A DNA stretch of 50,734 nt from Thermoflexales bacterium. Its GTDB lineage: Bacteria > Chloroflexota > Anaerolineae > J036 > Brachytrichaceae. The position numbers were made by a program, and so were the translations under genes. Shown here piece by piece: positions 5,431 to 41,025 of this stretch. Within the stretch, counting starts at the first letter, position 1, and every line of letters begins with the position of its first letter. The DNA is taken from NCBI GenBank assembly GCA_038213625.1, contig JBBQST010000001.1:1-50734 (forward strand), written 5' to 3'. The notes below the pieces were generated by a model. It ran no database searches and was not told the origin of the DNA. It was given only the letters and a program-made list of their open reading frames with translations.

Positions 5431-5485
5431 AGTGTCCTCCTGGCAGGTGCTGAATTCATGTTTTGAACTCAACTACTGCCATGTG

Positions 5486-5530
5486 TTGACCGGTATTGAC
5501 CGGTATTGACCGGTATTGAGTGAATTGACC
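5486..5530. repeat. 10-bp tandem repeat TTGACCGGTA x3 plus two degenerate units
   Basis: ttgaccggta occurs at 5486-5495, 5496-5505 and 5506-5515, followed by ttgagtgaa and ttgacc. The array lies between the stop of 5530..6213(-) and the start of the 5430 gene. Confidence 0.85.
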
Positions 5531-6213: not shown

Positions 6214-6385
6214 GTGAATACCTCCTGATGTCCGAAAACCAATATACGTGTGATCAAGCCTGAACCGGCTTGCAGGTAAGTTGGCGGCTGGCTGCTGGCA
6301 GTTAGCCGCTAGCAGCCAGCCGCCAATCCCGCCATCCACTTCCTTCCCTATTGCTAATAAACGGGTGAACGGTAAGATTTGCGGC

Positions 6386-7795: not shown

Positions 7796-7909
7796 AGCGG
7801 AGAGCGATGAGCTGGGAGCTTAGAGCATGAGCGGAGGTCGCCACCGTCTTGATTCAACTCTTTGCTCCTCGCTCACAGCTCACAGCTCTGTGCTCATCGC
7901 TCTCCGCTC
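7795..7909. repeat. heptamer-periodic long inverted repeat filling a convergent intergenic gap (bidirectional terminator-like)
   Basis: Left arm gagcggagagcgatgagc (7795..7812) is the exact reverse complement of gctcatcgctctccgctc (7892..7909). The left half is GAGCNNN x6 and the right half NNNGCTC x7. The arms overlap the stop codons of the hydantoinase gene and queA. Confidence 0.85.
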
Positions 7910-24177: not shown

Positions 24178-25133
24178 CAAATGCTGTCATCGTTCTCGTC
24201 GTGCTGGCTTTGGCGTTCATTGCAGCGGCCTATTTGCTAACGCCGCTCCGCGAGAAATATGACCTGCAAGGGTATGTGCAAACCAACCACCGGCAGCCAT
24301 GCTTCCTAACGGTGGACGGCCATGTGTTGCATTACAGCGATTCCGGCCCACCCACCGCCCCAGCAATTTTGCTCCTGCATGGTTTTGCCGCATCAGACTT
24401 CACCTGGCGTCAGCAGGTGCCGGCCCTGCTAAACGCGGGGTTTCGCGTGGTGGCATTGGACCATCTGGGATTCGGCGGATCGGCGCGCGTGGCGGGGCCG
24501 GCCTACTCCACGCAGTCCCATGCCGATTTGGCACTGGGTACGCTGGATGCCTTGAACATCGAGCGAGCCCATATCATCGGGCATTCCTACGGCGCGCGCG
24601 TGGCGATGCAGGTGTCGATTTTTGCGCCGGCGCGGGTGCAATCCATCATCGCCATCGCGCCTGAGGTGTTTGTCAGCGAACGACCGCCCATCGCCAAAGT
24701 GGTCGGCGCACCGGCGATTGGCTACACCCTGGCTTTCTACTCCACCATGCCGGAGTGGACCAACTTCGGGTTGAGGCTGGCGACCGGCCCCGACAAATCC
24801 TGGATCACACCCGAGGTCATTGAGGGCTACGCTGCACCGTTGCGCGTGAAGGGTAATCTAACCGCGCAAATCTGGCAGGCCAAATCTCCCAAGGATGGGC
24901 GGTTGCCAGTGCCGCAGCATGTGCAGACGATTCAGCAGCCCACCTTGCTACTGTGGGGCACTCACGATGCCATCTTCCCGGTTAGCGACGCACAAAGGCT
25001 GCAACAGATGCTTCCCGATTGCGAGTTGCAAATTTTCGACACCGGCCACGTTGTGCATGAAGAGCAGCCAGATGCATTCAATTCGGCTGCGCTTCAGTTT
25101 TATCACTCGCGGTTTGGCCATGGCTCGGCATGA
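24174..25133 (+). CDS. alpha/beta-fold hydrolase
   Basis: ORF track. ATGA overlap with the preceding gene. HGF oxyanion motif (LLLHGFAAS), nucleophile elbow GHSYGA, C-terminal ...DTGHVVHEE.... Confidence 0.85.
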   Translation: MTNAVIVLVVLALAFIAAAYLLTPLREKYDLQGYVQTNHRQPCFLTVDGHVLHYSDSGPPTAPAILLLHGFAASDFTWRQQVPALLNAGFRVVALDHLGFGGSARVAGPAYSTQSHADLALGTLDALNIERAHIIGHSYGARVAMQVSIFAPARVQSIIAIAPEVFVSERPPIAKVVGAPAIGYTLAFYSTMPEWTNFGLRLATGPDKSWITPEVIEGYAAPLRVKGNLTAQIWQAKSPKDGRLPVPQHVQTIQQPTLLLWGTHDAIFPVSDAQRLQQMLPDCELQIFDTGHVVHEEQPDAFNSAALQFYHSRFGHGSA

Positions 25134-25863
25134 TCAAGCGCCGCATCTCATCGGGCTTGAACCAGAAGTTCTGGAACATCTCGATGATGTAGGGCAAATG
25201 ATGGGCCGGGATGGCGACAAACATTTCTGACGACGCCACCTGATTGAAACCACGGCCGCCGCCCTCACCCAATGCATACACCGTGTTCTGGGTCAGCCAA
25301 GGTGCCGCAAACAATGACGAGCACGAAGATGCACCCAGCTCGCCGTGCGGGAAGGTGCCTTCGCGCACGGACACGGCTCCCGCCAGTTGCATCGCGCGCT
25401 GCACATCACAGATACAACACAACAGATCCAGCGGCACATCCGCCGGTAACGCATCCAGCGGCGCGGCCGCAATCGCGCGAATCGTTCCCACCGGCAGGGT
25501 GTGGCTGGTCTGCTTATTAATTTTGGCTGCAACTGGCGTAAAGAAGCCCTGTGCCATCGTCAAATATTCGCCGTCGCAAATCAAACTTCCCGCATCATCT
25601 TTGGGCAGAAACCCCAGGTGGTATTGACCCACATAGCAGTCATGCGATTGCGCGTTTACATAGACGTGCTTTCCCTGCTCGGCCTGATGCAGGATCGCGC
25701 ACGCCGGAATGCGCACCGAGTCATAGCCGGCCGGCGGCCCATCATCGCAATACGTCACCGCCACCGGCTTGCGCTTCAACTTCATCTTGTTGACCAAAAT
25801 ATCGACGAGCAATTCGCGATCCACCGGCTGCGTAGACAGGGAGCGAAATTCTTGAAGGTTCAT
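25078..25863 (-). CDS. DUF169-family protein
   Basis: ORF track. ...KRKPVAVTYCDDGPPAGYDSVRIPACAILHQAEQGKHVYVNAQSHDCYVGQYHLGF... matches my memory of DUF169/COG2043. Confidence 0.7.
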   Translation of the reverse strand: MNLQEFRSLSTQPVDRELLVDILVNKMKLKRKPVAVTYCDDGPPAGYDSVRIPACAILHQAEQGKHVYVNAQSHDCYVGQYHLGFLPKDDAGSLICDGEYLTMAQGFFTPVAAKINKQTSHTLPVGTIRAIAAAPLDALPADVPLDLLCCICDVQRAMQLAGAVSVREGTFPHGELGASSCSSLFAAPWLTQNTVYALGEGGGRGFNQVASSEMFVAIPAHHLPYIIEMFQNFWFKPDEMRRLIMPSHGQTASDKTEAQPN

Positions 25864-25906: not shown

Positions 25907-26512
25907 CTACACCACAAACGGCACAAACCGCTTCGTGCGTGCCATATAACTTTTGTATTCGTCGCCCAATTCACGCACTAGCAAACGCTCTTCAAGCGGT
26001 ATGCGCATGACGTAGGCCGCAATCAGCACGCCACCGGCAATCAGCGCGCCTAACCAGGTCGAGAGCGCCAGCCCAATCCCAATGGCACTGAGCGTGCCGC
26101 CGGTATAACCAGGGTGGCGAATCCATTGGTACGGGCCGCTGGTGATGACGCGATGGCCTTGTTGCACCGCCGCCTCACCCACATACAGCCGGCCCATTTG
26201 CAACTGCGCCCACAAGCGTAACAGCCGGCCACCCACAATGAGCAAAAATCCCAGCACCACGCACACGCCGCGAAACTCGCCGCGTACCACACCGAGCTTG
26301 GCAAAGCCAAAAATCAACGGCACCAACAAACTCACCGGTATGGCAACGGCCAGCGGTAGAAAAGTCTTGCTGCGCTCCCGCACTGCATCCTGCGGCGCGC
26401 GAATCTTGTAGCGCGTCTCCAGCCACATATACAGAAACAGAATGACGCTGAAAGCGATTGCACTGAGCGGCGTATCGAACACGCCAGTGGGGCCAATAAA
26501 ATACTCGTACAT
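25907..26512 (-). CDS. isoprenylcysteine carboxyl methyltransferase (ICMT/PEMT)-family membrane methyltransferase
   Basis: ORF track. Multi-TM with the C-terminal signature ...ITSGPYQWIRHPGYTGG...EERLLVRELGDEY.... Confidence 0.8.
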   Translation of the reverse strand: MYEYFIGPTGVFDTPLSAIAFSVILFLYMWLETRYKIRAPQDAVRERSKTFLPLAVAIPVSLLVPLIFGFAKLGVVRGEFRGVCVVLGFLLIVGGRLLRLWAQLQMGRLYVGEAAVQQGHRVITSGPYQWIRHPGYTGGTLSAIGIGLALSTWLGALIAGGVLIAAYVMRIPLEERLLVRELGDEYKSYMARTKRFVPFVV

Positions 26513-26524
26513 GATGAATCCAGA

Positions 26525-28081
26525 TTAGCCAGCCAATGCCTTCTCAACCACCTCGACCGTCACCTCTTTCAAGTTATTCTTCACCGCATATTGTTCCACG
26601 CCGGTGCGCAATTCGCGGGTGGCGCTGATGCGGCTGAGCCACGGAATGCCTTCGAGGTGCGTCTCCATTTGCTCACGCGCCTCGTCCTTCCACACCAGGT
26701 TGCGCGCCGCAGTCAGCGTGCTGCTCATATCCTTCAGGCCACCGGCATCTTTCACATTGTCAAACGGCAGGAAATTGAACACAACCTCATAGAAGCGATT
26801 CACCATTTCCTGAACGATAAAGATGATGCCGCTATAGCCCATAAACGGCGTGCCCAAGGCGCGGCGCACGGTTGCACCTGGGAATGCCGCAGGGATAAAG
26901 AACGTCGCTTTTGCACCCGCTTCGGTCAAATAGATCTTTTCATTCAAGCTGCCGAACACGAAGCCGGGTTGCTTCTTGTGCAACGTCTCGCGGATGGCGA
27001 TGTTGTCCATGGTGCCGGGCTGATAGGGCCGCGCCGCCGCAAACTGCAACTTCATGCCCAGCTCATCGGCCAGCAATTTCACCAACCCATCGGCATACGT
27101 CTTGCCGGCCACCACCGCAAATTCTGTTGTAGCAAACCAATCGCCCTGTGGGCCGCGCCACAAATCCCACAACGCCGCCAATGTCGTTTTCTTTTCTTTG
27201 GCGATAAAGGCATCGGCCTGCTCCCGCGTGCCCAAAATATTGCCGATTTGTTGAATGAATTCGGTGGTCTCGCGAATGCCCATCGGCGCAAACAAATACG
27301 GCTTGCCCAATTCAACAGCCAGCGCCTCGCCAAACTCGTGGTACATCACGATGTTCAACGCACTATCGGCCAGCCGAGGCGTATCGCTCAGCAACGACTC
27401 AGTCGGATAGACCAGGTTCACTGTGCCGCCGGCCCCTTCGATCAGCCGCTTGATCTCGTGCAAATCTGAGGGCGAGTTGAAGCAGCCCATGGTGGGGCCG
27501 ATGATGTTGACGAGACCGTTGCTGGCGGCTGGCGGCTGGCGGCTGGCGGCTGGATTTTTGCGATACTTCGCGCCAATTGCACCAAATTGTTTCCACAACC
27601 ACACCAGCACGCGCTCGCGGCCTTCGTATTCATCGCCTTCCAGCGATTTACTCCAGAAGAACGGCGTCGGCTGCTCCATGCGGCCCAGCCAGTCGCCATG
27701 ATCACTCGAGATCATCTCGCTCTCCGCCGTGCTGACCACGATGACTTCGCGATCTGGATGAATCTGGCGCAACGCATCGACGGTGCGGCGAACAGCGCCG
27801 GCCGTGCCCGTCATCGTCACCTCTTGCTCGCGCATCACGCTCGGTGTCAGATTCTCGATGTGCGGGATGGCATCGGTGTAATCGGGGACTGCGGTGCCGA
27901 CCAGGTTGAAGCAGCCAATCGGCGCATCGCAAATCACATGCGCATCCGGCATGCAACAAATCGTCCACACCGCCGCCCAATAGCCGCTGGTGCTTTCCAA
28001 ATCGCGTATCAATTGAATCGGCGCATGCTTCTTGCCGCCGGTCGAGACAAACGTTTCTGTATTGAGCTGTGTATCAGACAT
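26525..28081 (-). CDS. bchZ: chlorophyllide a reductase subunit Z
   Basis: ORF track. The N-terminus ...GYWAAVWTICCMPDAHVICDAPIGCFNLVGTAVPDYTDAIP... has the BchZ pattern (GGYWGAVY...V.DGPVGC...YTDA.P) rather than the BchB pattern. Same operon as bchX/bchY. Confidence 0.9.
   Translation of the reverse strand: MSDTQLNTETFVSTGGKKHAPIQLIRDLESTSGYWAAVWTICCMPDAHVICDAPIGCFNLVGTAVPDYTDAIPHIENLTPSVMREQEVTMTGTAGAVRRTVDALRQIHPDREVIVVSTAESEMISSDHGDWLGRMEQPTPFFWSKSLEGDEYEGRERVLVWLWKQFGAIGAKYRKNPAASRQPPAASNGLVNIIGPTMGCFNSPSDLHEIKRLIEGAGGTVNLVYPTESLLSDTPRLADSALNIVMYHEFGEALAVELGKPYLFAPMGIRETTEFIQQIGNILGTREQADAFIAKEKKTTLAALWDLWRGPQGDWFATTEFAVVAGKTYADGLVKLLADELGMKLQFAAARPYQPGTMDNIAIRETLHKKQPGFVFGSLNEKIYLTEAGAKATFFIPAAFPGATVRRALGTPFMGYSGIIFIVQEMVNRFYEVVFNFLPFDNVKDAGGLKDMSSTLTAARNLVWKDEAREQMETHLEGIPWLSRISATRELRTGVEQYAVKNNLKEVTVEVVEKALAG
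27522..27553. repeat. in-frame heptamer array CTGGCGG x4.5 inside bchZ
   Basis: ctggcgg occurs at 27522-28, 29-35, 36-42 and 43-49, then ctgg. It is translated on the minus strand as ...NPAASRQPPAASN.... Confidence 0.85.
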
Positions 28082-28102
28082 AGGTATCCTTTCGTTACTC
28101 CG

Positions 28103-28561
28103 CTAGCGCACAGACAAAACCGCGCACTTGCCATCAAACTTTAGCGTTGCAAGGTCAAAAGACACCCTGGAAATAGCTTGAGGCGCATCATTGAAAGCAG
28201 GATCATTTACGTAGACAACGCCATCATCCATACCCACGACCACAATGGCATGATTGGTGTCTGTCACCCAGTATGGCAAATCCGATGTGCTTACAAAAGC
28301 GATGACTGGAAGACCCATCTGTAACTTTTTGTGCACATCCGATGCCGACAGTTCCTTCAATTCCACACGAACGCCCAATTGTGAAAGCTTTGTGACATTG
28401 TTGGCAGGCGTGCCAAACCACCTGGTCTGGAGCAGTTGTTTGACACGCTCGTAAGTCACATCCTTTCCCAAATAGCGCAAACACATTAGCGCACACGCGG
28501 CTAAGCAATCCGCATCATCCCGCTGCTGCTCGTGCAACACGACGAGCAAGATTTTCTGCAT
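28103..28561 (-). CDS. stand-alone C39-like (papain-fold) cysteine peptidase domain protein
   Basis: ORF track. ...HEQQRDDADCLAACALMCLRYLG... supplies the Gln and catalytic Cys context. ...TNHAIVVVGMDDGVVYVNDP... supplies His and Asn/Asp-Pro. This is the C39/Peptidase_C39_2 layout. Confidence 0.65.
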   Translation of the reverse strand: MQKILLVVLHEQQRDDADCLAACALMCLRYLGKDVTYERVKQLLQTRWFGTPANNVTKLSQLGVRVELKELSASDVHKKLQMGLPVIAFVSTSDLPYWVTDTNHAIVVVGMDDGVVYVNDPAFNDAPQAISRVSFDLATLKFDGKCAVLSVR

Positions 28562-28874
28562 TCCTTTCTATTTCTCTAATCACGTCAGGCAATGTATTTA
28601 ACGCTCCCGAATTAACATCAACCTCGATGTAACCAACCACACCTGCATCGCCAATGGAGGGAAAGGTTAAGTGGATTGGGACGCGCCAGACAAACGACTC
28701 ACCCAGCATCAAGACGGGTTTGCCGCCGTGCATTTGCGAACTTATCTCTCCATGCACATATTTTGAGACATGCCGTTGCGCATCCACATCGGACACATTG
28801 ATTTGCACATCGATTGCAAGACGCAATGACAACAAACCTGAAGCAGGGACAGAAGTTCTCACCAACACATCCAT
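28515..28874 (-). CDS. small protein with PepSY-like C-terminal half, unknown function
   Basis: ORF track. ...GESFVWRVPIHLTFPSIGDAGVVGYIEVDVNSGALN... resembles the PepSY beta-hairpin motif (x-W-x-V...G...v.VDa.tG.v). The ORF overlaps the next gene by 47 nt. Confidence 0.5.
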   Translation of the reverse strand: MDVLVRTSVPASGLLSLRLAIDVQINVSDVDAQRHVSKYVHGEISSQMHGGKPVLMLGESFVWRVPIHLTFPSIGDAGVVGYIEVDVNSGALNTLPDVIREIERNAENLARRVARAAAG

Positions 28875-28898
28875 GACAAAATTTTAATGAAGTCGAAA

Positions 28899-30356
28899 TT
28901 AATCCATCGTGTTCACAGGCTTCACCACACCTTCGGCCTTGGTCCCTTCAAAAAATTCGCGCATCCACTCATAGCGCGGGCTGCGGCCCAACGTATCCTG
29001 GATGAGGCTGATCGTGCCGGCCAACCCCGCGCTCAGGAACAGGGGCCGCACGCTGAGCATGTTGGTGTAATACATGCCAGGGATGCCGCGCTTCTTGGCC
29101 TCGGCGCTGAGCGGCGTCGTACCCAATACCAAATCCGGCGAATACGCATCCAGCGCGCGCGTGTCCTGCTCCAAAGCCTTTTGGTAAATCACTTCTTTGG
29201 TGCCGTGCGCCTTTAACCACGCTTCATCAGACGCGGTGTACAAATTCTTGTTGATCGAGGTGCTGATGTAGGGCACGACCGCACCGGCTTCCACCAGCAG
29301 GCGGGCATAAGTCATCTCATTGCCCTCGTAGCCGCACACATGAATGCGGGGCGCGTCGCCGCGATTGCTTTTAAGCGGCATCGCTGCAATCAGGCTACGG
29401 CACTTGTCGCGCTCTTCAACCGCCACCTGCTCGACCAACTCCTTGTCCAGCTTCAGCGCATTGCCGATGGCTTTGATCCAGGCGTAAGTGCCTTCCGGTC
29501 CCACCGGCGCACCCGAAATAATGGGCACACCCGCTGCACGCAAAGTGGCCACTGTAGCGTTGTAGAACGGATGCACGGCCGCAATTGCGCCGACCTTGCC
29601 GGCTAGCTTGTAATCATCCAAATTGCGCGAAGGCAGATTCGCCGCCAGGCCGCTGCCAATCTTTTTCAAGATCGCATCCACGGTCAATGGGTCAGCGGGA
29701 AAGACCTCGCCGAGCATGATGACTTTCTTCTTCAGTTCATCTTTATCAGCGTCAGCATCGCTGCCATCAAACGTCAACGGCTTCTCCACACCATCGGCCG
29801 TTAGCTCCACCGTATCCTTCTTTCGTGGCACAAACTTTTTCAGCAGCGCATTAATGGCCACATCCTTGGCCTCGGGGTGCGAGTGAATGGCGTAGGCCGG
29901 CACGCGCACCAGAATTGTGTCGATGCCGTTCACTTGCGCTGGAATCATTTCCTCGCTGAGCCCAGCCGTCTCGGCCACGCACAGGCTGATCGCGGCGATA
30001 AGCTTGGTGCCTGGCATCTTGCTCGCCTCTTGAATGCTGGCGATGGCGGCCTCGGCCACATTGCCCGCCACCAATTCTTTGGTGCCGATGGCCGGCGCGG
30101 CAATGCTCTTGCGGCTGGCATAAAAGTGAGTCACGAACGTCAGGCCATACAGACAGCCGGTGTCGGTCACCATCGCCGTTTGCACGCCGTCGATTCGCGT
30201 CAGCACTCGCAAGCTGCCAAAAGCCGGGCACATCGTCTGCGGCGTCAGATTATGGTCGGGGCTGACCGATAAGCCTTCGTGCTTAGTCACAGGCTTACCC
30301 TTGGTTTCGATGATGTCGAAGGTGATGAGATTCCCTTCGGGAACAGTTAGGGACAT
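28899..30356 (-). CDS. bchY: chlorophyllide a reductase subunit Y
   Basis: ORF track. ...PQTMCPAFGSLRVLTRI...TGCLYGLTFVTHFYASRKS... matches the BchY signature (QSMCPAFGSLRV...C.YGLTF.SHFYGARR). Confidence 0.9.
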   Translation of the reverse strand: MSLTVPEGNLITFDIIETKGKPVTKHEGLSVSPDHNLTPQTMCPAFGSLRVLTRIDGVQTAMVTDTGCLYGLTFVTHFYASRKSIAAPAIGTKELVAGNVAEAAIASIQEASKMPGTKLIAAISLCVAETAGLSEEMIPAQVNGIDTILVRVPAYAIHSHPEAKDVAINALLKKFVPRKKDTVELTADGVEKPLTFDGSDADADKDELKKKVIMLGEVFPADPLTVDAILKKIGSGLAANLPSRNLDDYKLAGKVGAIAAVHPFYNATVATLRAAGVPIISGAPVGPEGTYAWIKAIGNALKLDKELVEQVAVEERDKCRSLIAAMPLKSNRGDAPRIHVCGYEGNEMTYARLLVEAGAVVPYISTSINKNLYTASDEAWLKAHGTKEVIYQKALEQDTRALDAYSPDLVLGTTPLSAEAKKRGIPGMYYTNMLSVRPLFLSAGLAGTISLIQDTLGRSPRYEWMREFFEGTKAEGVVKPVNTMD

Positions 30357-30474: not shown

Positions 30475-31641
30475 CTACTCGTAGTACGGCGCAGCCGTAA
30501 ATCGCAAATCCGCCATCTTGAAGGTTTCGCCGCTATGAGACAGGGCCGACAAAATCGCGATCTTGCTGTCCATCTCGTCGCGCGGGTCGCCGAAGATGGC
30601 GTCCCAGCCGGTATCTGTTGTGACGACGACGCCGCGCTCCGGCTCTTCGACCAATCGCGTCACCGTCAGGCCCATCTCTTGCATGATGCGGCGCACGACC
30701 AGTTTGCTGTCTTCGCTGTACTCGGCGCTATTCAAATCGATACTCTGTGCGGCCAGCGTGGTGTGGCCCATCAGATCGTCCATGCTGGCACCGATCGGCA
30801 AGCCTGGCGGCTCTGATGCGCCAAAAACATCGAGGAATTCGTCGTACTCCAGCGGCGTCACTTTGTCGGGCACGGTGTAATCGCGGCGGTGAATCTTGTT
30901 CACAAATTGATCGAACAACGAATCCATCTCCGGCAAATCGAACAGGAGTTTGCAGCGGTCGCTCAGCGCGCGCGCGGTTGGATTAAACGGCACCTTCACC
31001 AAAATCGGCAGGCCCACCCGCTCGGCAAATTTCTCGGCCACGCCGCTGCCGTCATCGCGGTTCAACACCATGCCAATCACGCGGGTCTTGCCGCCCATGC
31101 TCTGGAAGTAGCTAACGGCGCGGGCGATGTTATTGGCTGCATACAAACTCATCCGGTCGTGGCTGGCGATGATCACGATCTCCTCGGCCAGGCTCTTGGC
31201 AATCGGGGTGGCAAAGCCGCCGCACACCACATCGCCCAGGAAATCCATGACGATGTAATCGAGCGCCCAATCGGCCATGCCGCGCTCTTCGAGCAGACCA
31301 AAGCCAAAGCTGATGCCGCGCCCGCCGCAGCCGCGGCCCACTTCGGGGCCGCCCAATTCGGCACCATACACGCGGGCCTTGTTATCCAGCTCGGTCTTAA
31401 AAATCAAATGCTCAACGCCGAGTTCCTTCTCGCGGTTGGCGTCCTTCATCATGCGCCATTGGTCGCCGATGGTGGGCAGACCACGGCCATCAAACAACGC
31501 ATTACACGAATCGTGTTTAGGGTCACACCCCAATTGCAACACGCGCAATCCCTTCAGCGCCATCTTCGCGCTCAGGTTCGCCGTGAAGAAACTTTTGCCA
31601 ATGCCGCCTTTTCCATAAATTGCAATCATTCTTGGGGACAT
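30475..31641 (-). CDS. bchX: chlorophyllide a reductase iron protein subunit X
   Basis: ORF track 30475..31662(-). I moved the start to ATG 31641 (MSPRMIAIYGKGGIGKS...), 6 nt after GGAGG. NifH/BchL/BchX P-loop, ...GGPEVGRGCGGRG..., ...DFLGDVVCGGF.... Called X because it sits beside bchY/bchZ. Confidence 0.9.
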   Translation of the reverse strand: MSPRMIAIYGKGGIGKSFFTANLSAKMALKGLRVLQLGCDPKHDSCNALFDGRGLPTIGDQWRMMKDANREKELGVEHLIFKTELDNKARVYGAELGGPEVGRGCGGRGISFGFGLLEERGMADWALDYIVMDFLGDVVCGGFATPIAKSLAEEIVIIASHDRMSLYAANNIARAVSYFQSMGGKTRVIGMVLNRDDGSGVAEKFAERVGLPILVKVPFNPTARALSDRCKLLFDLPEMDSLFDQFVNKIHRRDYTVPDKVTPLEYDEFLDVFGASEPPGLPIGASMDDLMGHTTLAAQSIDLNSAEYSEDSKLVVRRIMQEMGLTVTRLVEEPERGVVVTTDTGWDAIFGDPRDEMDSKIAILSALSHSGETFKMADLRFTAAPYYE

Positions 31642-31690
31642 ATAAAACCTCCACAAACACACATCATTTGCAACGCGTTGGGGTTTGCTG

Positions 31691-32671
31691 TTATTGAGCC
31701 GGCCATTCCAACACCATCTTCAAGCAATTCACATCGTTAAATGCCACATCGAACGCCTGTGACGCATCCTCGGCCTTCATACGATGTGTCACCAGATCAT
31801 CGACATTGAGCGCCTTGTCGCGTATCAGGTCGCGTGCAGCGGCCAGATCGCCCGGGGCCCACTGCATGCTGCTGACCAATGTCAATTCTTTTAGAAATAC
31901 GGGTTGATAGGGCAGGTTGATGCAGTCGTAATAACCCAACAACACGACCCGGCCGCCGCGCCCCATGCGCATCAACCACGGCGAGATCGCCTCCATCTTG
32001 CCAGTCGCATCAATCAGCACATCCACACCTTTTATTGCAGCAAATTCAGCTCCAGAAAGCTGCAAATCCGATGCTGTATTCAGTATGGCATCGGCCTTGG
32101 AATAATGCAAACGCGCGTCTTCTTTATCCGTCACAATGAGCTTGAGCGCCTTGTTTCCACGTGCTTTTACGATGCGCGCCGCAAGCTGGCCCACGATGCC
32201 CTGACCAAGTATGACCACCGTTTTTGGCGCGTCCGACGCCACCAGCCCAGCCTGATTCACGCCATGCAGCGCCGTCGCCGCCAATGCCAGCAACACGCCT
32301 TGTTCCGGCGTCAACGTCTGCAAATCAGTCAGGTGCGTTTTCGGCGCAACGATGTATTCGCTCTGTCCGCCAAATGCTGGATTCACGCCGAGGAAGCCGT
32401 AATTGCCGCCGACATAGACTCGCTTGCCCAACCATTCATCTGCGTTGTCACCGGCCTCAATCACCTCACCCACCGTCTCATATCCCGGCACCACCGGAAA
32501 TTGCAACATTGGGTGCGGCATCACCCCTTTCAACAACATGCGCTCGGTACCGGCGCTAATACTGGTCAACTGTGTCCTAATCAGCACATCATCTGCGCCG
32601 ATGGGTTTCAGCTCAACATCCTGCATCTCAATCGTGTTCGCCGCAGGAATCACAATAGCCTTTGTTCTCAT
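31691..32671 (-). CDS. bchC: 3-hydroxyethyl bacteriochlorophyllide a dehydrogenase (MDR family)
   Basis: ORF track. ...LTSISAGTERMLLKGVMPHPMLQFPVVPGYETVGEVIEAG... matches the BchC pattern (SGISTGTE..L..GRMP.FPG..YPLVPGYE.VG). Confidence 0.85.
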   Translation of the reverse strand: MRTKAIVIPAANTIEMQDVELKPIGADDVLIRTQLTSISAGTERMLLKGVMPHPMLQFPVVPGYETVGEVIEAGDNADEWLGKRVYVGGNYGFLGVNPAFGGQSEYIVAPKTHLTDLQTLTPEQGVLLALAATALHGVNQAGLVASDAPKTVVILGQGIVGQLAARIVKARGNKALKLIVTDKEDARLHYSKADAILNTASDLQLSGAEFAAIKGVDVLIDATGKMEAISPWLMRMGRGGRVVLLGYYDCINLPYQPVFLKELTLVSSMQWAPGDLAAARDLIRDKALNVDDLVTHRMKAEDASQAFDVAFNDVNCLKMVLEWPAQ

Positions 32672-33914: not shown

Positions 33915-36900
33915 TCAAACCCGCACACCTTCCAACCGATCTTCCAAATCGGCATACAACGCTTTCAGTTGATCCACCGTGTCGTCATCGGCCTTCCACA
34001 ACCCGCGCCCACTCGCCTCCAGCAGCCGGCCCACGATGTTGCGCATGGCCTGGGGATTCGCCTTGGTCAGCCGCTCGCGCATCTCGGCATCCAGCGCAAA
34101 CGTTTGCGCCGCATCCTTGTAAATCCAGTCATCCACGCTGTCGCTCACGGCATCCCAGCCCAGCATGTAGGTAAAGCGGTTGCTAATCTCGGCCGCGCCG
34201 CTGTGGCCGTGCGAGAGCATGCCCTCGTACCACTTGGGGTTCAGCAGCTTGGTGCGGTACTCCACCCGCAACACTTTGTCCACATCCTCAATGCGTGTCT
34301 CGGCTGTGTAGGTCTCGATGTAGTTCAACTTCACCGTGCCACCCGTGCGCTTCTTCGCTGCCATCTGCAACGCGCCGCTGGACGAAAAGTAATGGTCAAT
34401 GTCGGTGACGCCAAACTCCACGCTGTCGATCTCCTGCACCACCCGGCCCACCGTCCCCAACAACTTGCTCAGCATGGGACCGGCCGCTGCACCCGCACGT
34501 CCACCACCGTAGGCGTAGCCGATGCGCCGCACAAACGTGCTGTCCAGATCGTCGGCGCTCTCCCACGCGCTGTCGTCGACCATGTCATCGACATAGGTGC
34601 CATACTGGCCTGGCTGCTGGGTGAACATGCGCGCCGTGGCCGTCTCGAATGCGACGCCACCGCGCATCGCCTCATCCACATGCTTGCGAATGAAGTTCAT
34701 CTCGCACGGCTCATCGGCCCCCGCCGCGCTGCGCACCAGCTTGTCCAAAAAGTCCATCGTGATCTCGAAGGTGTCTCGAAAAATAGGGCTCAACTGCATC
34801 AACACGTCCACGCGCGGCCGCTTCAATTCACCCAGTGGAATCAGCGCATAGTGGCTGATCTTGCCCTGCCCGTCGTAGGCCGGCTTCGCGCCGATCAACC
34901 CCAACACCGTGCCCACGGCCTCGCCCTTGGTCTTGATCGTGTCCAAGCCCCACAGCACTTGCGCAATGGTTTCAGGATACGCGCCAGTCTCCTCCACATG
35001 CTTCTGCAAAATCGCCTCGGCAATGTGCGCGCCCTTGGTGTAGGCCAGTTCGGCCGGAATGCGCCACGGATCAATCGCGTGAATGTTGCGCCCCGTCGGC
35101 AACACGCTCAAGCCATCGCGAATCAAATCGCCGCCGGCATTCGGCAAAATGTAGCCGCCGCTCAGGCCGCGCAACAAGCCATTGATCTCGCCGCGGTTGT
35201 CGCTCAACATCTGCGCCATCTGCCGGCCCTGCCGCACCATCTCATCCAGCGCGTGCAAATCCTCAGATGAACCATGTCCACCAAACGCCTTCTCAACCGC
35301 CGCCGCCAGACTCAAATCCCCAAACACGGCTCCTTCCACAAACTCGCGCGCATGTTCCTCAATCGCCTCGCGCATCCGAATCGCCGCCGCATCACCCTTG
35401 CGCGCCAGTGCGGCCAACTCGGTATAAGACGACGGGAGATGGGGGACGGAAGACGAATCGCCGTCCCCCGTCTCTCGTCTCCCGTCTCTCTCCCACACCG
35501 CCCTCGTCGCAATCGACGTCAGCGAATGCCCATTTCCCCGCGCCTTCATCGCCTCGGTCACCATCGTCATCTGGCTCTGCACCGGCGTCGCCTCGCCAAA
35601 CACATGCAAGGTGCCACTGATCAGCCGTTGCTCAAGGTCACGCAAATACGCATACAGCCGGCTCACATACACATCAAAATGTTCACCCTCGACCCGCGGG
35701 CAATCCGTATCCAGATTCGCCAACTCCACCTTCTTCAATATCGCCTCAGCCCGCGCATCGTCCCCATTTCTGCCTTCTGCCTTCTGCCTTTTGACTTCTC
35801 GATAATCCGCCACCATGTCCTTCAGCGCGATCAATTCTTTATACAAACCGGCTCGCATCATCGGCGGCACGTTGTGCGAGATGATCGTGGCATACCCGCG
35901 CCGCTTGGCAATGTTGGCTTCACTTGGGTTGTTCATCGGGTAGATGTAGAGATGCGGCACCTCGCCCACCATCGCATCGCTCCAGCAACTGCGCGTCACG
36001 CCCAGTTGCAAGCCCGGCATCCACTCCACGCTGCCGTGCATGCCCAGATGCACCAGCGCATCAGCCCCGAAGCAACGGCTGATCCAGCGATAGAACGCGG
36101 CATATTGGTGGTGCGGCGCGTTGTCCTTGTCGAACAGCAGCCGCATCGGGTCGCCCTGCACACCGATGCGCGGTTGCACGCCGATGTAAATATTGCCCAT
36201 GCGCAGGCCGCCCATAAACACGCGGTCGTTGCCCAACGGCGCAACATCCCCAGGGAATGCACCCCAGCGCTCCTCGATGCGTTCGCGCTCGCGCACGCTC
36301 AACACATCCGCAAATTGGGCCCGTGTCATCACATGCTCGCTCTTGTAGGCCGAGGGATGGCCGGTATCGGTGGTGTTCTCGATCAGCTCCAACAGCGCTT
36401 CCGGCGTCTCCGGCAAGCTGCCCACGTTGTAGCCCGCTGCCTGCATCTCGCGCAAAATGTTGAGCAGGCTGCGCGGCACATCTAATAAGGCGGCCGTGCC
36501 TTTTTTGCCGTAGCCGGGTGGATAGTCATACAGCACAATCGCGACCTTCTTGTCGGCATTCGGCGTGTGTCGCAGCTCGGCCCAGCCTTTGGCCAACGTG
36601 GTCAGCCGCTTCAGCCGATCCGGCACCGTGGCGAACTTGCCGTTGTTGATCGCGCCGATGACCACGGGATTAATCGCGCCGTCCATCTCCGGCAACGAGA
36701 ACAATGTCGCGCTCTGCATCGGCCCCGCGCCGTTCTGCGCCCACGAGCGAAAGTCCTGCACAAACAGCGGCTGCGCCACGATATACGGCACATTTAACCC
36801 ACCCAGCACGTCTTCAACCACCTGTTTTTGCAGACCCGGCTTGGTGCTGCCCGCCGGCCCGCCCACAAACGCAAAGCCGATCATGCTCACCAGCACGTCA

Positions 36901-37865
36901 ATCGGCTCCTTGGAAATGAAGTCGCGCACCGCCACGTGGCCCTCGATGCCGGCCACAAACATCGGCAGCACCTCCATGCCCTCGGCCTCAAACGCCCGAA
37001 TCGCATCATCGATATAACTGCGCTCCTGAGCCAGATGCTTGCGAAAGAACATCAGGGCAACCCGGCGAGGCTGGTTACTGGCGGCTGGTTGCTGGCGGCT
37101 GGTGATTTGGACAACACCTGTCCCCGGCTTCCCTTTCTGCCTTTTGCCTTCTGCCTTCTGCCTTTCTCCATCCGCCTTCTGCCTTTGTTTCACCCATCCG
37201 TTGTAGCTCTTAATATCTCGAAAGAACGCCGGCGCATCGGGGTGATACACGCCCATCATCGGCATCTCCACCGCCGCCGGCACGTCTAGTTTCTTGCCAA
37301 AATATTCGTTCAAGATCAGCTTGAACATGCTCGTGATATTCTGCTGCAACGGCTGGTTCCAATACACATTCACCGTCATCCAGTTCTTAAAATCGCGCAT
37401 CTTGGCCGGCATAAAGCGCATGGCCGTTTGCATCACCTTCATCAGCTTGGTGTAGCCATAGAGTGCGTCCTCCTCGCGGCCCTTCACCAGCATCATCGCG
37501 ATCTTCTTCACCGGCTCGGGCATACCCGCCTTCTTGCCACTGTTCGCCACGACATAGTCGCCGACCTTGTTCAGGGCCATGATCTCGGGCATCGACTCAA
37601 ATGCAAAAATAGTCTTGGCGTGGGATTGCGCAATTTGCTCATGCAAAAACTCGGCCGCATCGTGCTGGTGCAACATCGATAAAAATACGCAATCGGCCTC
37701 GCGAATCTGCTGCCCCAACGTCGCATCCTTGCGATCCAGCTCCACATCAGTCCAGCGATTCACTTCGGCAACTTCAGACAGCTCCTGCTGCACCTGCTTC
37801 CACACGCCGTGGTTAAACTGCTCCATCCCCACAATCGCGACAATCTTTGGTTTCATATTCTTCAT
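33915..37865 (-). CDS. bchH: magnesium chelatase large (H) subunit
   Basis: ORF track, 1316 aa. CobN/Mg-chelatase H architecture throughout (...HLGMHGSVEWMPG..., ...YVDDMVDDSAWE...). Adjacent to bchD/bchI. Confidence 0.95.
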   Translation of the reverse strand: MKNMKPKIVAIVGMEQFNHGVWKQVQQELSEVAEVNRWTDVELDRKDATLGQQIREADCVFLSMLHQHDAAEFLHEQIAQSHAKTIFAFESMPEIMALNKVGDYVVANSGKKAGMPEPVKKIAMMLVKGREEDALYGYTKLMKVMQTAMRFMPAKMRDFKNWMTVNVYWNQPLQQNITSMFKLILNEYFGKKLDVPAAVEMPMMGVYHPDAPAFFRDIKSYNGWVKQRQKADGERQKAEGKRQKGKPGTGVVQITSRQQPAASNQPRRVALMFFRKHLAQERSYIDDAIRAFEAEGMEVLPMFVAGIEGHVAVRDFISKEPIDVLVSMIGFAFVGGPAGSTKPGLQKQVVEDVLGGLNVPYIVAQPLFVQDFRSWAQNGAGPMQSATLFSLPEMDGAINPVVIGAINNGKFATVPDRLKRLTTLAKGWAELRHTPNADKKVAIVLYDYPPGYGKKGTAALLDVPRSLLNILREMQAAGYNVGSLPETPEALLELIENTTDTGHPSAYKSEHVMTRAQFADVLSVRERERIEERWGAFPGDVAPLGNDRVFMGGLRMGNIYIGVQPRIGVQGDPMRLLFDKDNAPHHQYAAFYRWISRCFGADALVHLGMHGSVEWMPGLQLGVTRSCWSDAMVGEVPHLYIYPMNNPSEANIAKRRGYATIISHNVPPMMRAGLYKELIALKDMVADYREVKRQKAEGRNGDDARAEAILKKVELANLDTDCPRVEGEHFDVYVSRLYAYLRDLEQRLISGTLHVFGEATPVQSQMTMVTEAMKARGNGHSLTSIATRAVWERDGRRETGDGDSSSVPHLPSSYTELAALARKGDAAAIRMREAIEEHAREFVEGAVFGDLSLAAAVEKAFGGHGSSEDLHALDEMVRQGRQMAQMLSDNRGEINGLLRGLSGGYILPNAGGDLIRDGLSVLPTGRNIHAIDPWRIPAELAYTKGAHIAEAILQKHVEETGAYPETIAQVLWGLDTIKTKGEAVGTVLGLIGAKPAYDGQGKISHYALIPLGELKRPRVDVLMQLSPIFRDTFEITMDFLDKLVRSAAGADEPCEMNFIRKHVDEAMRGGVAFETATARMFTQQPGQYGTYVDDMVDDSAWESADDLDSTFVRRIGYAYGGGRAGAAAGPMLSKLLGTVGRVVQEIDSVEFGVTDIDHYFSSSGALQMAAKKRTGGTVKLNYIETYTAETRIEDVDKVLRVEYRTKLLNPKWYEGMLSHGHSGAAEISNRFTYMLGWDAVSDSVDDWIYKDAAQTFALDAEMRERLTKANPQAMRNIVGRLLEASGRGLWKADDDTVDQLKALYADLEDRLEGVRV
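35431..35479. repeat. in-frame hairpin insertion inside bchH (GACGRRA-type heptamers)
   Basis: A 19-bp stem (35431..35449 pairs with 35461..35479; 17 Watson-Crick pairs and 2 G:T) with an 11-nt loop. Translated on the minus strand as ...ERDGRRETGDGDSSSVPHLPSS.... Confidence 0.75.
35768..35795. repeat. in-frame heptamer array TTCTGCC x3 plus one variant inside bchH
   Basis: ttctgcc occurs at 35768-74, 75-81 and 82-88, then ttttgac. Translated as ...EVKRQKAEGRNGD.... Confidence 0.8.
37071..37183. repeat. compound in-frame repeat insertion in the N-terminal part of bchH
   Basis: ctggttactggcgg/ctggttgctggcgg/ctggtg (37071..37104) and seven consecutive NNNNGCC heptamers, mostly ttctgcc (37135..37183). 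Translated as ...KQRQKADGERQKAEGKRQKGKPGTGVVQITSRQQPAASNQPRR.... Confidence 0.8.
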
Positions 37866-37983: not shown

Positions 37984-39903
37984 TCAGCCCGCTCCGTCAA
38001 TCGCCGCCACAATCTGCCCGGCTTTGGCATTCGGCAAATACACATATCGCCCGTCCAGCCACTTCGCCAGCCTCGGCGCTTCGCCGCGCGAGAGGTAGTT
38101 CGCCTGGGTGTCAATCACCACCGCGCCCACCCCATCGGCCGCAATCAACGCGCTCAGTTGCTTCAACTCATCCTCAATCTGCTGCTTGGCCGTTGGCTGC
38201 TGGCCGCCAGCCGCTAGCCGCTCTTTGCCCCCCGCTCCTCGCTCTCCGCTGATTCCCACATTCCCCCGCCCATCCGTCATCACAATCAAGGTCGTGTTGG
38301 GAATGCCCTTGCGGCGCGATTGCTGCGCCATGTCCCAGCCCAGCATCAGCGCACTCGCCAGCGGCGTGCCACCGCCAGTCGGCAACACATCCAGTTCGCG
38401 CTTGGCCTGCTCCACGCTCTGGCTCGGGGCCAGCAGCACCTGCGCCTGCTGCCCGCGAAACGACACCAGCGCCACCCGGTCGCGATGCACATACGCGTTC
38501 TGCAACAGCCTGGCCACCGCGCCCTTGGCCTGCCGCATCCGGTTCAACGCCATGCTGCCGCTCGCATCCACCACAAACACAAACAACGTGCCGGCCTTGT
38601 CTCGAAACTTCTTGACGCGAATATCTTCTTTGGTGATGAGGACGGAAGAGAGACGGGAGACGGAGGACGGAGGACGGTTCAGAGAAGGCGTCGGTCGTTC
38701 GTCTCCCGCCGTCTTCCGTCTCCCGTCCTCCGTCTCCCGCCTCATCTTCTGCCACGGCGCCGCCGCCAGCAACGTCGGCAACAACGCCAGCTTGTGGCCG
38801 CGCATCTCGCCCTGCACCGCTCGCACAAACTTGCCACGCTTGTCGTTGAGCTGAACCCCACGGCTACCACTCTTGCCGCGCCGCGAGGTAAATGGCAGAT
38901 TCAACACATCGCCCGGCAATGCCGCTTCCACCGCGCTCAGTAATAGCTCTTCAATTTGGGGTTGCGCTTCAGGCTGAGGCGGCTCCGGCGTGTCCTCGTC
39001 TTGTTGCTGCTGCTCTGGCTTGGGCTGTTGCTCTTGTTGCGGCGGGGGTTGATCGGGCTGCTGCTCCGGCTCAGGCAGTCGCGTCGCACGCGGCATCAGC
39101 ACCAGTTTGGCCGCAGCCTGCAAATCCTCGTCGTCCACGGCATCACGCCCACTCAGTGCGGCATGGGCCAGGGCCGCTTTGGCCGCAAATACATCGGCCC
39201 GGTTGCCCTCCACACCCAGACTCAGCGCCGCCTGCGCAATGCCTTCAAGCTGCTCATCGCTGATCGTGATGGATGACAACTGCTCGCGCGCAAATCCGAT
39301 CATGCCGCGCAGCATGGCCATCTCATCGGTCTCTTGCTCAAGCGAATTAAGTGGCGCTGCAATATTTCGCCGCACGACTTCGGCCCGCGCCTGCGTGTCG
39401 CCGTTCGACACAAACGGCACAATCAGGCCAATGCGATCCAGCAAGCCGCCGCGCACGTTGCCATCGTTGCTGTCGTAGGTGCCCATCAACATGAAGTGGG
39501 CCGCGTGCACGGCACTCAAGCCTTCGCGCTCGATCCGCACTTCGCCCCGGCTCATCGCATCCATCACCTGGGTCACCACTGCGTCATCCAACAAATTCAA
39601 GCCATCGACATTGAGCACGCCGCCATCGGCCTTGGCCAGCAAACCCTGCTCCACCACCCGCTGGCCCGTCGCCAGGGCCGCTTCAAGATTCAAGCCGCCG
39701 ATCAAGCGATCCTCAGTGATATTCAGCGGCAACTCCACAAACGGCGTGCCGTCAGGCAACAGGGCCGCAAAGGCCCGGGCCAGTGTGCTCTTGCCCGAGC
39801 CCACCGCCGCCGCCATGGCCACACCGCCCAGGCTCGGATCCACCGCAAGCAGCAATAGTGCTTGTTTTGCAGAGTCGAGGCCAACGATGTCAGACCAGTT
39901 CAT
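37984..39903 (-). CDS. bchD: magnesium chelatase D subunit
   Basis: ORF track. N-terminal AAA+-like half, acidic/Pro-Gln-rich linker (...EPEQQPDQPPPQQEQQPKPEQQQQDED...), C-terminal vWA domain with MIDAS motif VVDASGSM. Confidence 0.95.
   Translation of the reverse strand: MNWSDIVGLDSAKQALLLLAVDPSLGGVAMAAAVGSGKSTLARAFAALLPDGTPFVELPLNITEDRLIGGLNLEAALATGQRVVEQGLLAKADGGVLNVDGLNLLDDAVVTQVMDAMSRGEVRIEREGLSAVHAAHFMLMGTYDSNDGNVRGGLLDRIGLIVPFVSNGDTQARAEVVRRNIAAPLNSLEQETDEMAMLRGMIGFAREQLSSITISDEQLEGIAQAALSLGVEGNRADVFAAKAALAHAALSGRDAVDDEDLQAAAKLVLMPRATRLPEPEQQPDQPPPQQEQQPKPEQQQQDEDTPEPPQPEAQPQIEELLLSAVEAALPGDVLNLPFTSRRGKSGSRGVQLNDKRGKFVRAVQGEMRGHKLALLPTLLAAAPWQKMRRETEDGRRKTAGDERPTPSLNRPPSSVSRLSSVLITKEDIRVKKFRDKAGTLFVFVVDASGSMALNRMRQAKGAVARLLQNAYVHRDRVALVSFRGQQAQVLLAPSQSVEQAKRELDVLPTGGGTPLASALMLGWDMAQQSRRKGIPNTTLIVMTDGRGNVGISGERGAGGKERLAAGGQQPTAKQQIEDELKQLSALIAADGVGAVVIDTQANYLSRGEAPRLAKWLDGRYVYLPNAKAGQIVAAIDGAG
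38635..38746. repeat. in-frame imperfect inverted repeat of GGNNGAC heptamers inside bchD
   Basis: Left arm gatgaggacggaagagagacgggagacggaggacggaggacgg. Right arm ...gtcttccgtctcccgtcctccgtctcccgcctcatc. The outer 7 bp gatgagg/cctcatc are exact. Translated as ...RRETEDGRRKTAGDERPTPSLNRPPSSVSRLSSVL.... Confidence 0.7.
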
Positions 39904-39918
39904 ATGAATACCCAGGCA

Positions 39919-41025
39919 CTAGAGCGCACGCGCAACGCGCTCATCCGAATCCACAATCTCAAGCGGGTCGCGCCGCAGCCGATGCCGCAATGCCGCGGTC
40001 GCCATCACTTTCACATCGTCATACTTCACGTCGATGGGGCCGTGGGCGGCCTTGGATTGAAACGCCGCGTAGGCACAGGCGGCTCGCGTCACGGTCAGCT
40101 CGCCGCGATGCCCATCGATGCCGAGCTTCATACACAACTCGGCGGCACGCAGCAACACGTCGTCGGGCATCACCACCTCGTGCAAAATCTTTTGGGCGTG
40201 CACAATGCGTTTGCGCAATTGCTGTTGTTGCGGCTCCCACATCTGCATAAACGCGGCAGGGTTCTCGTCAAACGCACGCCGGCGCTTCACAATTTCCACG
40301 CGCTCCTGCACATTCGTAATCGTGGTGATGCGCGCGTGCAGGCCAAATCGATCCAGCAATTGCGGCCGCAACTCGCCCTCCTCAGGGTTGCCGCTGCCCA
40401 CCAAAACAAATCGGGCCGGATGTTTGATGCTGATGCCTTCGCGCTCCACCACATTCCAGCCACTGGCGGCCACGTCCAACAACACATCCACCAAATGGTC
40501 ATCCAGCAAGTTCACTTCATCGATGTAGAGAAAGCCGCGATTGGCCTGGGCCAGCAGGCCCGGCGCAAAGCGCTTCTCGCCCCTGGTTAGCGCGGCTTCA
40601 ATATCAATCGTGCCGCACACGCGATCCTCAGTCGCACCAAGCGGCAGATCAACCACGGGCACGGGGATCTTCTCCAGCTTCTGAGACGACGGACGACGGA
40701 CGATGGACGACCCATCTTGCCGTCGTCCGTCGTCTGTCGTCTGTCGTCTCTGCTTCTGATCCACGTCATCCACCGTCTCTCTGTTATAGACATCCCCTTC
40801 AATGCGCTTGATGGCCGGCAACACATCGGCCAACGCGCGCACGGTCGTGCTCTTGCCGGTGCCACGATGCCCCATCACCATGACCCCGCCAATGCGTGGG
40901 TCAATTACATTCAGCAGCAAACACAGTTTCATCTCCTCCTGACCGACGATGGCGGTGAAGGGAAACGAAGTATTCAATGCATTGAGCGCGTTCAGTTCGG
41001 CATGGGGAGTGCTATGAGTCGACAT
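39919..41025 (-). CDS. bchI: magnesium chelatase I (ATPase) subunit
   Basis: ORF track. ...FPFTAIVGQEEMKLCLLLNVIDPRIGGVMVMGHRGTGKST... (Walker A), ...GFLYIDEVNLLDDH... (Walker B), ...ARFVLVGSGNPEEGELRPQLLDRFG.... Confidence 0.95.
   Translation of the reverse strand: MSTHSTPHAELNALNALNTSFPFTAIVGQEEMKLCLLLNVIDPRIGGVMVMGHRGTGKSTTVRALADVLPAIKRIEGDVYNRETVDDVDQKQRRQTTDDGRRQDGSSIVRRPSSQKLEKIPVPVVDLPLGATEDRVCGTIDIEAALTRGEKRFAPGLLAQANRGFLYIDEVNLLDDHLVDVLLDVAASGWNVVEREGISIKHPARFVLVGSGNPEEGELRPQLLDRFGLHARITTITNVQERVEIVKRRRAFDENPAAFMQMWEPQQQQLRKRIVHAQKILHEVVMPDDVLLRAAELCMKLGIDGHRGELTVTRAACAYAAFQSKAAHGPIDVKYDDVKVMATAALRHRLRRDPLEIVDSDERVARAL
40684..40751. mobile_element. 68-nt palindromic (GACGACR heptamer) element inserted in frame in bchI, flanked by 7-bp direct repeats
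   Basis: Arms 40684..40711 and 40722..40749 pair at 28 of 28 positions (25 Watson-Crick, 3 G:T) with a 10-nt loop. gcttctg occurs at 40677..40683 and again at 40752..40758. 68 + 7 = 75 nt = 25 codons (...QRRQTTDDGRRQDGSSIVRRPSSQK...). Confidence 0.55.

Follow-up and report, generated by a model that had tools for sequence, protein, structure and literature searches.

The 50,734-nucleotide (nt) stretch of DNA analysed in this study, hereafter the window, comprises positions 1 to 50,734 of the forward strand of contig JBBQST010000001.1 in assembly GCA_038213625.1, which derives from a Thermoflexales bacterium. Within its bacteriochlorophyll (bch) genes, the bchXYZ genes for chlorophyllide reductase are interrupted between bchY and bchZ by two small genes located at 28103-28874 on the minus strand (Table 1). 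The first, ORF1, is a small gene encoding 119 amino acids (aa), and the second, ORF2, encodes a peptidase of 152 aa; the two genes together are referred to as the pair or the cassette. A preliminary description of this DNA had reported two co-oriented open reading frames (ORFs) that overlap by 47 nt at this junction, and this arrangement was confirmed, as was the presence of all the sequence motifs quoted for it (HEQQRDDADCLAAC, HAIVVVGMDDGVVYVNDP, FVWRVPIHL and GVVGYIEVDVNSGALN). Related loci retrieved from other contigs (L001 and following) and related proteins (P0022, P0024 and P0037) showed that the pair is not linked to bch genes.

Judged from its sequence, ORF2 is a genuine stand-alone cysteine peptidase of the C39/C39_2 type (clan CA, papain-like) whose catalytic residues are intact. 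The protein passed the Pfam gathering scores for both Peptidase_C39_2 (PF13529; 47.6 bits, E 3.5e-12, gathering score 24) and Peptidase_C39 (PF03412; 44.9 bits, E 1.3e-11, gathering score 22), and a profile built from 16 ORF2 homologues matched the C39 domains of PCAT1 and LahT as well as 3ERV chains in the PDB. In the alignment with PCAT1, Gln13, Cys19, His104 and Asp120 of ORF2 (corrected numbering) fell on the catalytic positions, the Gln, six residues ahead of the Cys, and the Cys itself being aligned with their counterparts in PCAT1. The full Gln/Cys/His/Asp set thus bears out the C39-like catalytic layout that had been read from the letters of the sequence. H104, N119, D120 and P121 were invariant across the 16 homologues, as was the VYVNDP motif, and the Gln and Cys were kept in every intact frame. 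The N-terminus, M-P-x-x-L-L-x-V-x-H-x-x-Q-x5-C-L, was legible at every intact peptidase locus, even where gene callers had picked an internal Met.

ORF2 also proved to be free of the additional domains and targeting signals that the preliminary description had found lacking. The 152-aa, acidic protein contains no ABC-transporter, transmembrane or ATPase fusion and no hydrophobic segment, and no signal-peptide-like or transmembrane-like segment was found in either the ORF1 or the ORF2 protein, the maximum Kyte-Doolittle values over a 19-residue window being 1.35 and 1.07. In NCBIfam, ORF2 matched best to bacteriocin and NHLP exporters, in their peptidase domains; the matches to TIGR03796 and TIGR01193 covered only the first ~104-117 profile positions and scored 27.6 and 19.4 bits, where the cut-offs are 853 and 524. 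Next to ORF2 there was no candidate for a double-glycine substrate, and a PADLOC scan of the ORF1 and ORF2 proteins returned no defence-system match.

No family could be assigned to the ORF1 protein by comparison with Pfam and NCBIfam. A word-indexed search detected six relatives, and a HMMER profile search identified 572 cluster representatives (counted at 50% identity) at E <= 1e-3, including 247 at E <= 1e-10. All of these relatives are annotated as hypothetical, and the organism, where named, belongs to the Chloroflexota. The family is acidic (median pI 5.25) and has near-invariant positions at A32, V36, P53, L55, W63-R64-V65-P66, L69, G75, G78, G81, V85-D86 and A106. An AlphaFold2 model computed from a 117-sequence alignment had a predicted local distance difference test score (pLDDT) of 91.9, in comparison with 55 from 7 sequences, and predicted an extended N-terminal arm (residues 1-28), a helix (29-43), four antiparallel strands (48-50, 54-57, 61-71 and 75-86) and a long C-terminal helix (96-118). 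A Foldseek search of this model against the PDB and BFVD gave zero matches at E <= 1e-3, and a PDB sequence search with the ORF1 profile gave no meaningful match. By these searches and this model, ORF1 is a member of a large, undescribed family with a confidently predicted alpha+beta fold that lacks significant matches.

The preliminary description had considered ORF1 to be PepSY-like. The topology and a V-D-x-x-x-G hairpin of the model would be compatible with PepSY, and a faint Foldseek match to the PDB was with a vibriolysin propeptide chain (3nqz_A, E 1.9, TM 0.39). The window ORF1 protein did not match the PepSY profile (PF03413) at E <= 1, however, and matches were obtained for only three of 96 ORF1 relatives, at E >= 0.018 and below the gathering score; one of three family consensus sequences reached 13.5 bits (E 0.095) against a cut-off of 24. 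Because none of these profile and structure comparisons reached significance, a PepSY identity of ORF1 was recorded as not demonstrated.

The ORF1-peptidase pair was detected in about 16 further Chloroflexota genomic contexts, with ORF1 identity down to 24%, and was usually translationally coupled. Among close ORF1 homologues (47-59% identity), from Anaerolineae, Chloroflexia, Caldilineaceae and other Chloroflexota metagenome-assembled genomes (MAGs), the peptidase gene always followed ORF1 directly. More distant ORF1 members (24-40% identity), which include a subtype of 144-180 aa with a proline-rich tail, were likewise followed by a C39_2 peptidase (L026-28, L030, L031-33, L034-35 and L041-43), and a reverse look-up from a distant peptidase, P0022, found an upstream gene of 126 aa that had no Pfam match and overlapped the peptidase gene by 41 nt. 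The 47-nt overlap seen in the window recurred in L003, L009 and L031, an overlap of 35 nt was inferred in L026, and 4-nt (ATGA) overlaps were present in two of the three pairs of L016. The recurrence of overlaps of 47, 41, 35 and 4 nt indicates translational coupling of the pair. Homologues of both ORFs in conserved synteny also indicate that they are real genes rather than chance ORFs, and the genes flanking the pair differ between loci. These surveys showed that ORF1 and the peptidase form one unit with strict pairing. A programmed frameshift that would fuse ORF1 and ORF2 was considered and rejected, since ORF2, in the +1 frame, has its own conserved Met-Pro/Gln-Lys start and full-length fusions were not seen.

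One locus, L016, carries three tandem ORF1-peptidase pairs (5311-8188). Among these copies, ORF1 is nearly identical over its first ~45 residues and the peptidase over its last 24, and the middle parts have diverged, which suggests concerted evolution of the ends and diversification of the cores.

A survey of bchY-bchZ junctions showed that the insert breaks an otherwise tight junction. In the four nearest bchZ loci (L019-L022, from the metagenome collection, 71-74% identity), bchZ follows bchY after 3-80 nt with no insert; the window BchX is 80% identical to the BchX of two of these relatives (L019 and L022). Three contigs with ~99% protein identity to the window were found, two of which (L023 and L024) span the junction, both with the insert. 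Among the bchXYZ loci compared, the insert was confined to these same-species (99% identity) contigs. The GC content is 0.47-0.49 in the cassette versus 0.58-0.60 in the flanking bch genes. BchX, BchY and BchZ were not detected by tblastn in 18 related loci (L001-L018, with 5-10 kb flanks), and no bch genes were listed in the gene tables of the further cassette loci, the same-species contigs aside. We read the location of the cassette between bchY and bchZ as incidental. The insertion is confined to one lineage, and the cluster is not its place of origin. For photosynthesis research, this is a caution that a position inside bchXYZ does not make a gene a photosynthesis gene.

Table 1. Positions of the bch genes, the cassette and its elements in the window, and of DNA-repair and helicase genes next to the pair in related loci (L numbers)
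Feature	Position	Strand	Evidence or spacing
bchI	39919-41025	-	
bchD	37984-39903	-	
bchH	33915-37865	-	
bchC-like dehydrogenase	31691-32671	-	
bchX, NifH-like chlorophyllide reductase subunit, first gene of the interrupted bchXYZ	30475-31662	-	Pfam Fer4_NifH, E 3.3e-69
bchY, upstream flank of the insertion	28899-30356	-	NCBIfam TIGR02015, 441.7 bits vs cut-off 425.15
24-nt spacer, bchY stop to ORF1 start	28875-28898	-	read from the sequence
ORF1, 119 aa	28515-28874	-	
47-nt overlap of ORF1 3' end and ORF2 5' end, ORF2 in +1 frame	28515-28561	-	
ORF2, 152 aa, stand-alone C39-like cysteine peptidase, predicted cytoplasmic	28103-28561	-	
ORF2 codons from oxyanion Gln13 (28523-28525) to catalytic Cys19 (28505-28507)	28505-28525	-	PCAT1 alignment; codons checked in the sequence
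ORF2 codons from catalytic His104 (28250-28252) to Asp120 (28202-28204), with VYVNDP motif	28202-28252	-	alignment with PCAT1 His and Asp-Pro
21-nt spacer, ORF2 stop to bchZ start, with AAAGGA Shine-Dalgarno-like element	28082-28102	-	read from the sequence
bchZ, downstream flank of the insertion	26525-28081	-	NCBIfam TIGR02014, E 8.1e-158, 526.2 bits
RarA beside the pair	L001 2896-4317; L007 10397-11821	same as pair	
UvrC beside the pair	L017 10792-12831	same as pair	33 nt
UvrA beside the pair	L026 6164-9055 (L026-28)	same as pair	
RecD2 downstream of the pair	L041 5877-8126	same as pair	84 nt
RecD2 upstream of the pair	L011 5138-7342	same as pair	
SNF2/NOV_C helicase and DUF1156 DNA methyltransferase	L003 6315-9977 and 10769-11791 (L003-6)	same as pair	

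The score of the window BchZ is marginally below the curated TIGR02014 cut-off of 529, and the protein is a divergent BchZ of the Chloroflexota type. Directly 3' of bchZ, and co-oriented with the bch genes, are genes for an ICMT/PEMT-type membrane methyltransferase (25907-26512, minus strand) and a DUF169 protein (25078-25863, minus strand). No promoter or terminator consensus exceeding the shuffled background was found in a scan of the cassette region, and the simplest reading of the sequence is therefore that the cassette is probably co-transcribed with bchXYZ.

Comparison of the window with the 99% strain contigs (L023 and L024) revealed 6 differences in the 772 nt of the cassette (0.78%) versus 92 in the 2556 nt of bchY and bchZ (3.6%; Fisher p 8e-6), so that the divergence of the cassette between strains is 4-5 times below that of its flanks. 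The codon differences between the cassette and that of a 99%-identical strain were five synonymous and one non-synonymous, indicating that both cassette genes are maintained. The low divergence of the cassette suggests either that the allele with the insertion has spread recently by recombination or that constraint on it is unusually strong. Beside the cassette, the 3' end of bchY (window 28879-29042) differs from L023/L024 at 25 positions in ~165 nt (~15%), and this patch may be a recombination junction.

At several related loci the peptidase gene was broken and ORF1 was intact, with an in-frame stop in L012 and frame breaks in L017 and L010. In L038-L040 (3833-5638), an intact ORF1 is located beside an insertion sequence (IS) gene encoding an rve integrase, and an uncharacterised ORF of 76 aa, possibly a remnant, occupies the position of the peptidase; in L029, ORF1 is followed by an ORF of 62 aa, with no peptidase. 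Two related proteins combine parts of the pair: P0024 (222 aa, from ENA contigs) consists of two ORF1 domains and the last 14 residues of the peptidase, and P0037 (187 aa) is an ORF1 joined to an internal fragment of the peptidase. From their sequences, P0024 and P0037 seem to have arisen by deletion or frameshift, with loss of the protease.

The interpretation that we favour, at about even confidence, is that the two genes form an autonomous protease-plus-partner cassette with coupled translation, whose partner probably acts like an inhibitor or antidote, and that the cassette is incidental to photosynthesis. The cassette would have been inserted in the window lineage into a bchY-bchZ spacer of 3-80 nt, as judged from the spacing in relatives, and would most likely be read through passively in the bchXYZ transcript, with no specific role in photosynthesis. 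Its low GC content, the differing genes around the pair at other loci, the tandem pairs of L016 and its low divergence between strains point to a foreign or mobile element that moves among unrelated loci. The ORF1 protein would be the dedicated partner of the peptidase, produced at a fixed ratio through coupled translation, and would most likely restrain the protease as an inhibitor, antidote or chaperone. The near-invariant WRVP strand and the glycine-rich G75-G78-G81 hairpin of ORF1 form a candidate contact surface, and the hairpin might enter a cleft that accepts only glycine, by analogy with the way staphostatins act on staphopains. An inhibitor or antidote is suggested by the order of the two coupled genes, in which the small one leads as in type II toxin-antitoxin (TA) modules, by the variable contexts and tandem arrays, and by an antidote-like asymmetry in which disruption or loss affects the peptidase and spares ORF1. 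The preliminary description had offered a toxin-antidote-like selfish insertion as its fallback; this idea fits the evidence better than a role in photosynthesis does, and its mechanism is one that we infer.

Several observations weigh against this interpretation. No recognised inhibitor, antitoxin or DNA-binding domain was found in ORF1. No target-site duplications or terminal inverted repeats were found around the cassette, nor were hallmarks of transposons or integrons. A scan of viral contigs with the close ORF1 alignment gave no match, and no link to phages emerged; the peptidase alignment gave two distant matches (29-30% identity) in the same scan. The asymmetry of decay is biased, because loci were mostly retrieved with ORF1, and some of the frameshifts may be errors of long-read assembly, with many or suspicious breaks in L008 and L010. 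Finally, the adjacency of the pair to repair genes, described below, suggests that its role is linked to housekeeping and is not purely selfish.

As it stands, a family of 572 representatives without a Pfam, NCBIfam or structural counterpart is the obligatory partner of a stand-alone C39-like protease across the Chloroflexota. Should the partner prove to be an inhibitor or antidote, the pair would constitute a protease-inhibitor or protease-toxin module of a new class and would open a first route to the function of the single-domain C39_2 peptidases, which are poorly understood.

DNA-repair and helicase genes were recurrent neighbours of the pair (Table 1). RarA adjoins the pair in L001, L002 and L007-L010, with gaps of 0-13 nt, as part of a conserved block of an M1-peptidase gene, the pair, RarA and Hsp90. 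By hand count, six of ~32 genes adjacent to the pair were DNA-transaction genes; among ~83 genes of the same flanks that do not adjoin it there were none (one-sided Fisher test, p roughly 3e-4). In ~6 of 14 intact contexts the pair adjoins such genes. In one Anaerolineales lineage (L003 6315-11791, also L004-L006 and L013), the pair is located between the SNF2/NOV_C helicase gene and the gene for the DUF1156 methyltransferase, which is of the D12 class and overlaps the pair by 4 nt. IS110 transposase genes are located upstream, and the setting resembles a restriction or defence island.

It is possible, although in our judgement unlikely, that the pair is a DNA-damage or DNA-transaction module, which works or is co-regulated with repair and helicase genes and of which the bchY-bchZ copy has been displaced. 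The immediate neighbours RarA, UvrC, UvrA, RecD2 and the SNF2/NOV_C helicase, all on the same strand as the pair, and the hand count speak for it. About half of the contexts are unrelated, however, with neighbours that include bchY/Z, rpsB-tsf, ornithine carbamoyltransferase (OTCase), a major facilitator superfamily (MFS) protein, an Rpf-like protein and hydrolases; no GAAC-N4-GTTC LexA-type box was found within 350 nt upstream of any of 20 pairs; and both proteins are acidic and without a nucleic-acid-binding domain. The count is also small and manual, and its contexts are possibly non-independent. A broader form of this idea, to which we likewise give a low probability, is a Chloroflexota-wide protease module tied to DNA repair or replication, activated by damage or clearing DNA-bound proteins and kept latent by a partner with a new fold; its repeated position beside repair and helicase genes would then be due to function and not chance, and bchY-bchZ would be a secondary landing site. 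If the linkage to repair genes survives a census, it would point to an unrecognised protease step in the handling of DNA damage in the Chloroflexota. Repair operons can contain TA modules, for example dinB-yafNOP in E. coli, and the repair reading is therefore compatible with the explanation as an autonomous cassette. The adjacency to repair genes is compatible both with TA-like cassettes in damage-inducible operons and with a genuine functional link.

Another explanation, which we also consider rather improbable, is that ORF1 is a substrate of the peptidase: the C39-like enzyme would cleave it, as a pro-protein or carrier, to free an active fragment, as with double-glycine leaders. C39 enzymes are dedicated processing proteases, the best NCBIfam matches of ORF2 were to exporter peptidase domains, as described above, and strict adjacency and coupled translation would also fit an enzyme with its substrate. 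In addition, the 28 N-terminal residues of ORF1 were extended in the monomer model, without regular secondary structure. A Gly-[Gly/Ala/Ser] dipeptide is not conserved in the family, however: the highest value at any position was only 40%, within a core beta-strand, and a double-glycine leader in ORF1 is not supported; an H49-G50 pair is conserved in the close family only, and the residue that follows it varies. Furthermore, ORF1 was modelled as a compact folded domain (pLDDT 92) and not as a leader-plus-core peptide, the neighbourhood contains neither an exporter nor a modification enzyme, and ORF1 survives where the peptidase has decayed.

The preliminary description had further proposed a maturation or quality-control protease specific to photosynthesis, processing reaction-centre and light-harvesting (RC/LH) polypeptides or chlorophyllide-reductase subunits, and this we now hold to be very improbable. 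The position of the pair inside bchXYZ, with spacers of 24 and 21 nt and no terminator, makes expression together with the bacteriochlorophyll enzymes probable, and three independent contigs of the species share the arrangement. On the other hand, the four closest bchXYZ loci lack the pair, homologous pairs are carried in ~16 contexts free of bchX, bchY and bchZ within 5-10 kb, mostly in MAGs of Anaerolineae, Caldilineae and Ardenticatenia, and the dip in GC marks the cassette as foreign to the cluster. Occurrence across genomes with no link to bch/puf genes had been named in that description among the grounds for refutation, and by this measure the proposal is refuted. An equally remote alternative is that the insertion is an inert hitch-hiker, a neutral remnant with no current function, as the decayed copies in L010, L012, L017, L029 and L038-40 might suggest, but the window ORFs are intact with all catalytic residues present, the strain differences were predominantly synonymous as given above, and the family is conserved over 24-60% identity with the pairing maintained.

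Literature on this pair, on C39_2 neighbourhoods and on Chloroflexi yielded no description of the ORF1-peptidase pair. Protease-inhibitor operons, PepSY-type propeptides that act in trans and type II TA modules are the systems that the pair resembles, and it has the full set of defining features of none of them. The exporter C39 domains of PCAT1, ComA and LahT (PDB 4RY2, 6MPZ and 7N87) are, like ORF2, papain-like and ~150 aa in length, and their Gln, Cys, His and Asp-Pro residues align with those of ORF2. In contrast to them, ORF2 is neither fused to nor adjoining an ABC transporter, has no evident double-glycine precursor and scores slightly higher for C39_2 than for C39 in Pfam, and the exporter domains lack the upstream partner of 115-160 aa with which the ORF2-type peptidase is always paired. 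Stand-alone Peptidase_C39_2 proteins (PF13529) such as 3ERV are single-domain proteins like ORF2, and 3ERV was its best PDB sequence match (E 1.7e-8); 3ERV has 236 aa versus 152 in ORF2, and the match was significant in its C-terminal half only. A 2023 classification linked C39_2 genes to transporter neighbourhoods and described no partner gene (PMC10318531); no such neighbourhoods were found around the ORF1-ORF2 pairs.

PepSY domains (PF03413), which occur in M4 protease propeptides and YpeB, may resemble the ORF1 model in a helix, four antiparallel strands and the V-D-x-x-x-G hairpin, with sub-threshold profile matches over ORF1 residues 55-100. ORF1 differs in its additional N-terminal arm of 28 residues and long C-terminal helix, and its partner is a cysteine peptidase and not a metallopeptidase, with both proteins predicted to be cytoplasmic. 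Type II TA modules (e.g. dinB-yafNOP) have in common with the pair two small genes that overlap and run in one direction, the putative antidote gene leading, as well as variable contexts, tandem arrays and preferential decay of the downstream gene. ORF1, however, has no DNA-binding antitoxin domain, the pair gave no PADLOC match, and no precedent for a C39-type protease toxin was found. Tox-PL-C39 domains of polymorphic toxins, reported also from Chloroflexi, are C39-like peptidase domains that serve as toxins and are neutralised by a cognate small Imm protein (Zhang et al. 2012, PMC3482391). They form the C-termini of large secreted toxins, and the immunity gene follows the toxin gene, whereas ORF2 is stand-alone and non-secreted and has its partner upstream.

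The functional analogy that we favour for ORF1-ORF2 is with the staphopain-staphostatin pairs (ScpA/ScpB and SspB/SspC) and SpeB-Spi, in which a papain-like protease is co-transcribed with a small, dedicated cytoplasmic inhibitor. Staphostatins are beta-barrels, and Spi resembles the propeptide of SpeB. Their proteases are secreted and encoded by the first gene, whereas in ORF1-ORF2 both proteins are predicted to be cytoplasmic, the small gene precedes that of the peptidase, and the inhibition is putative.

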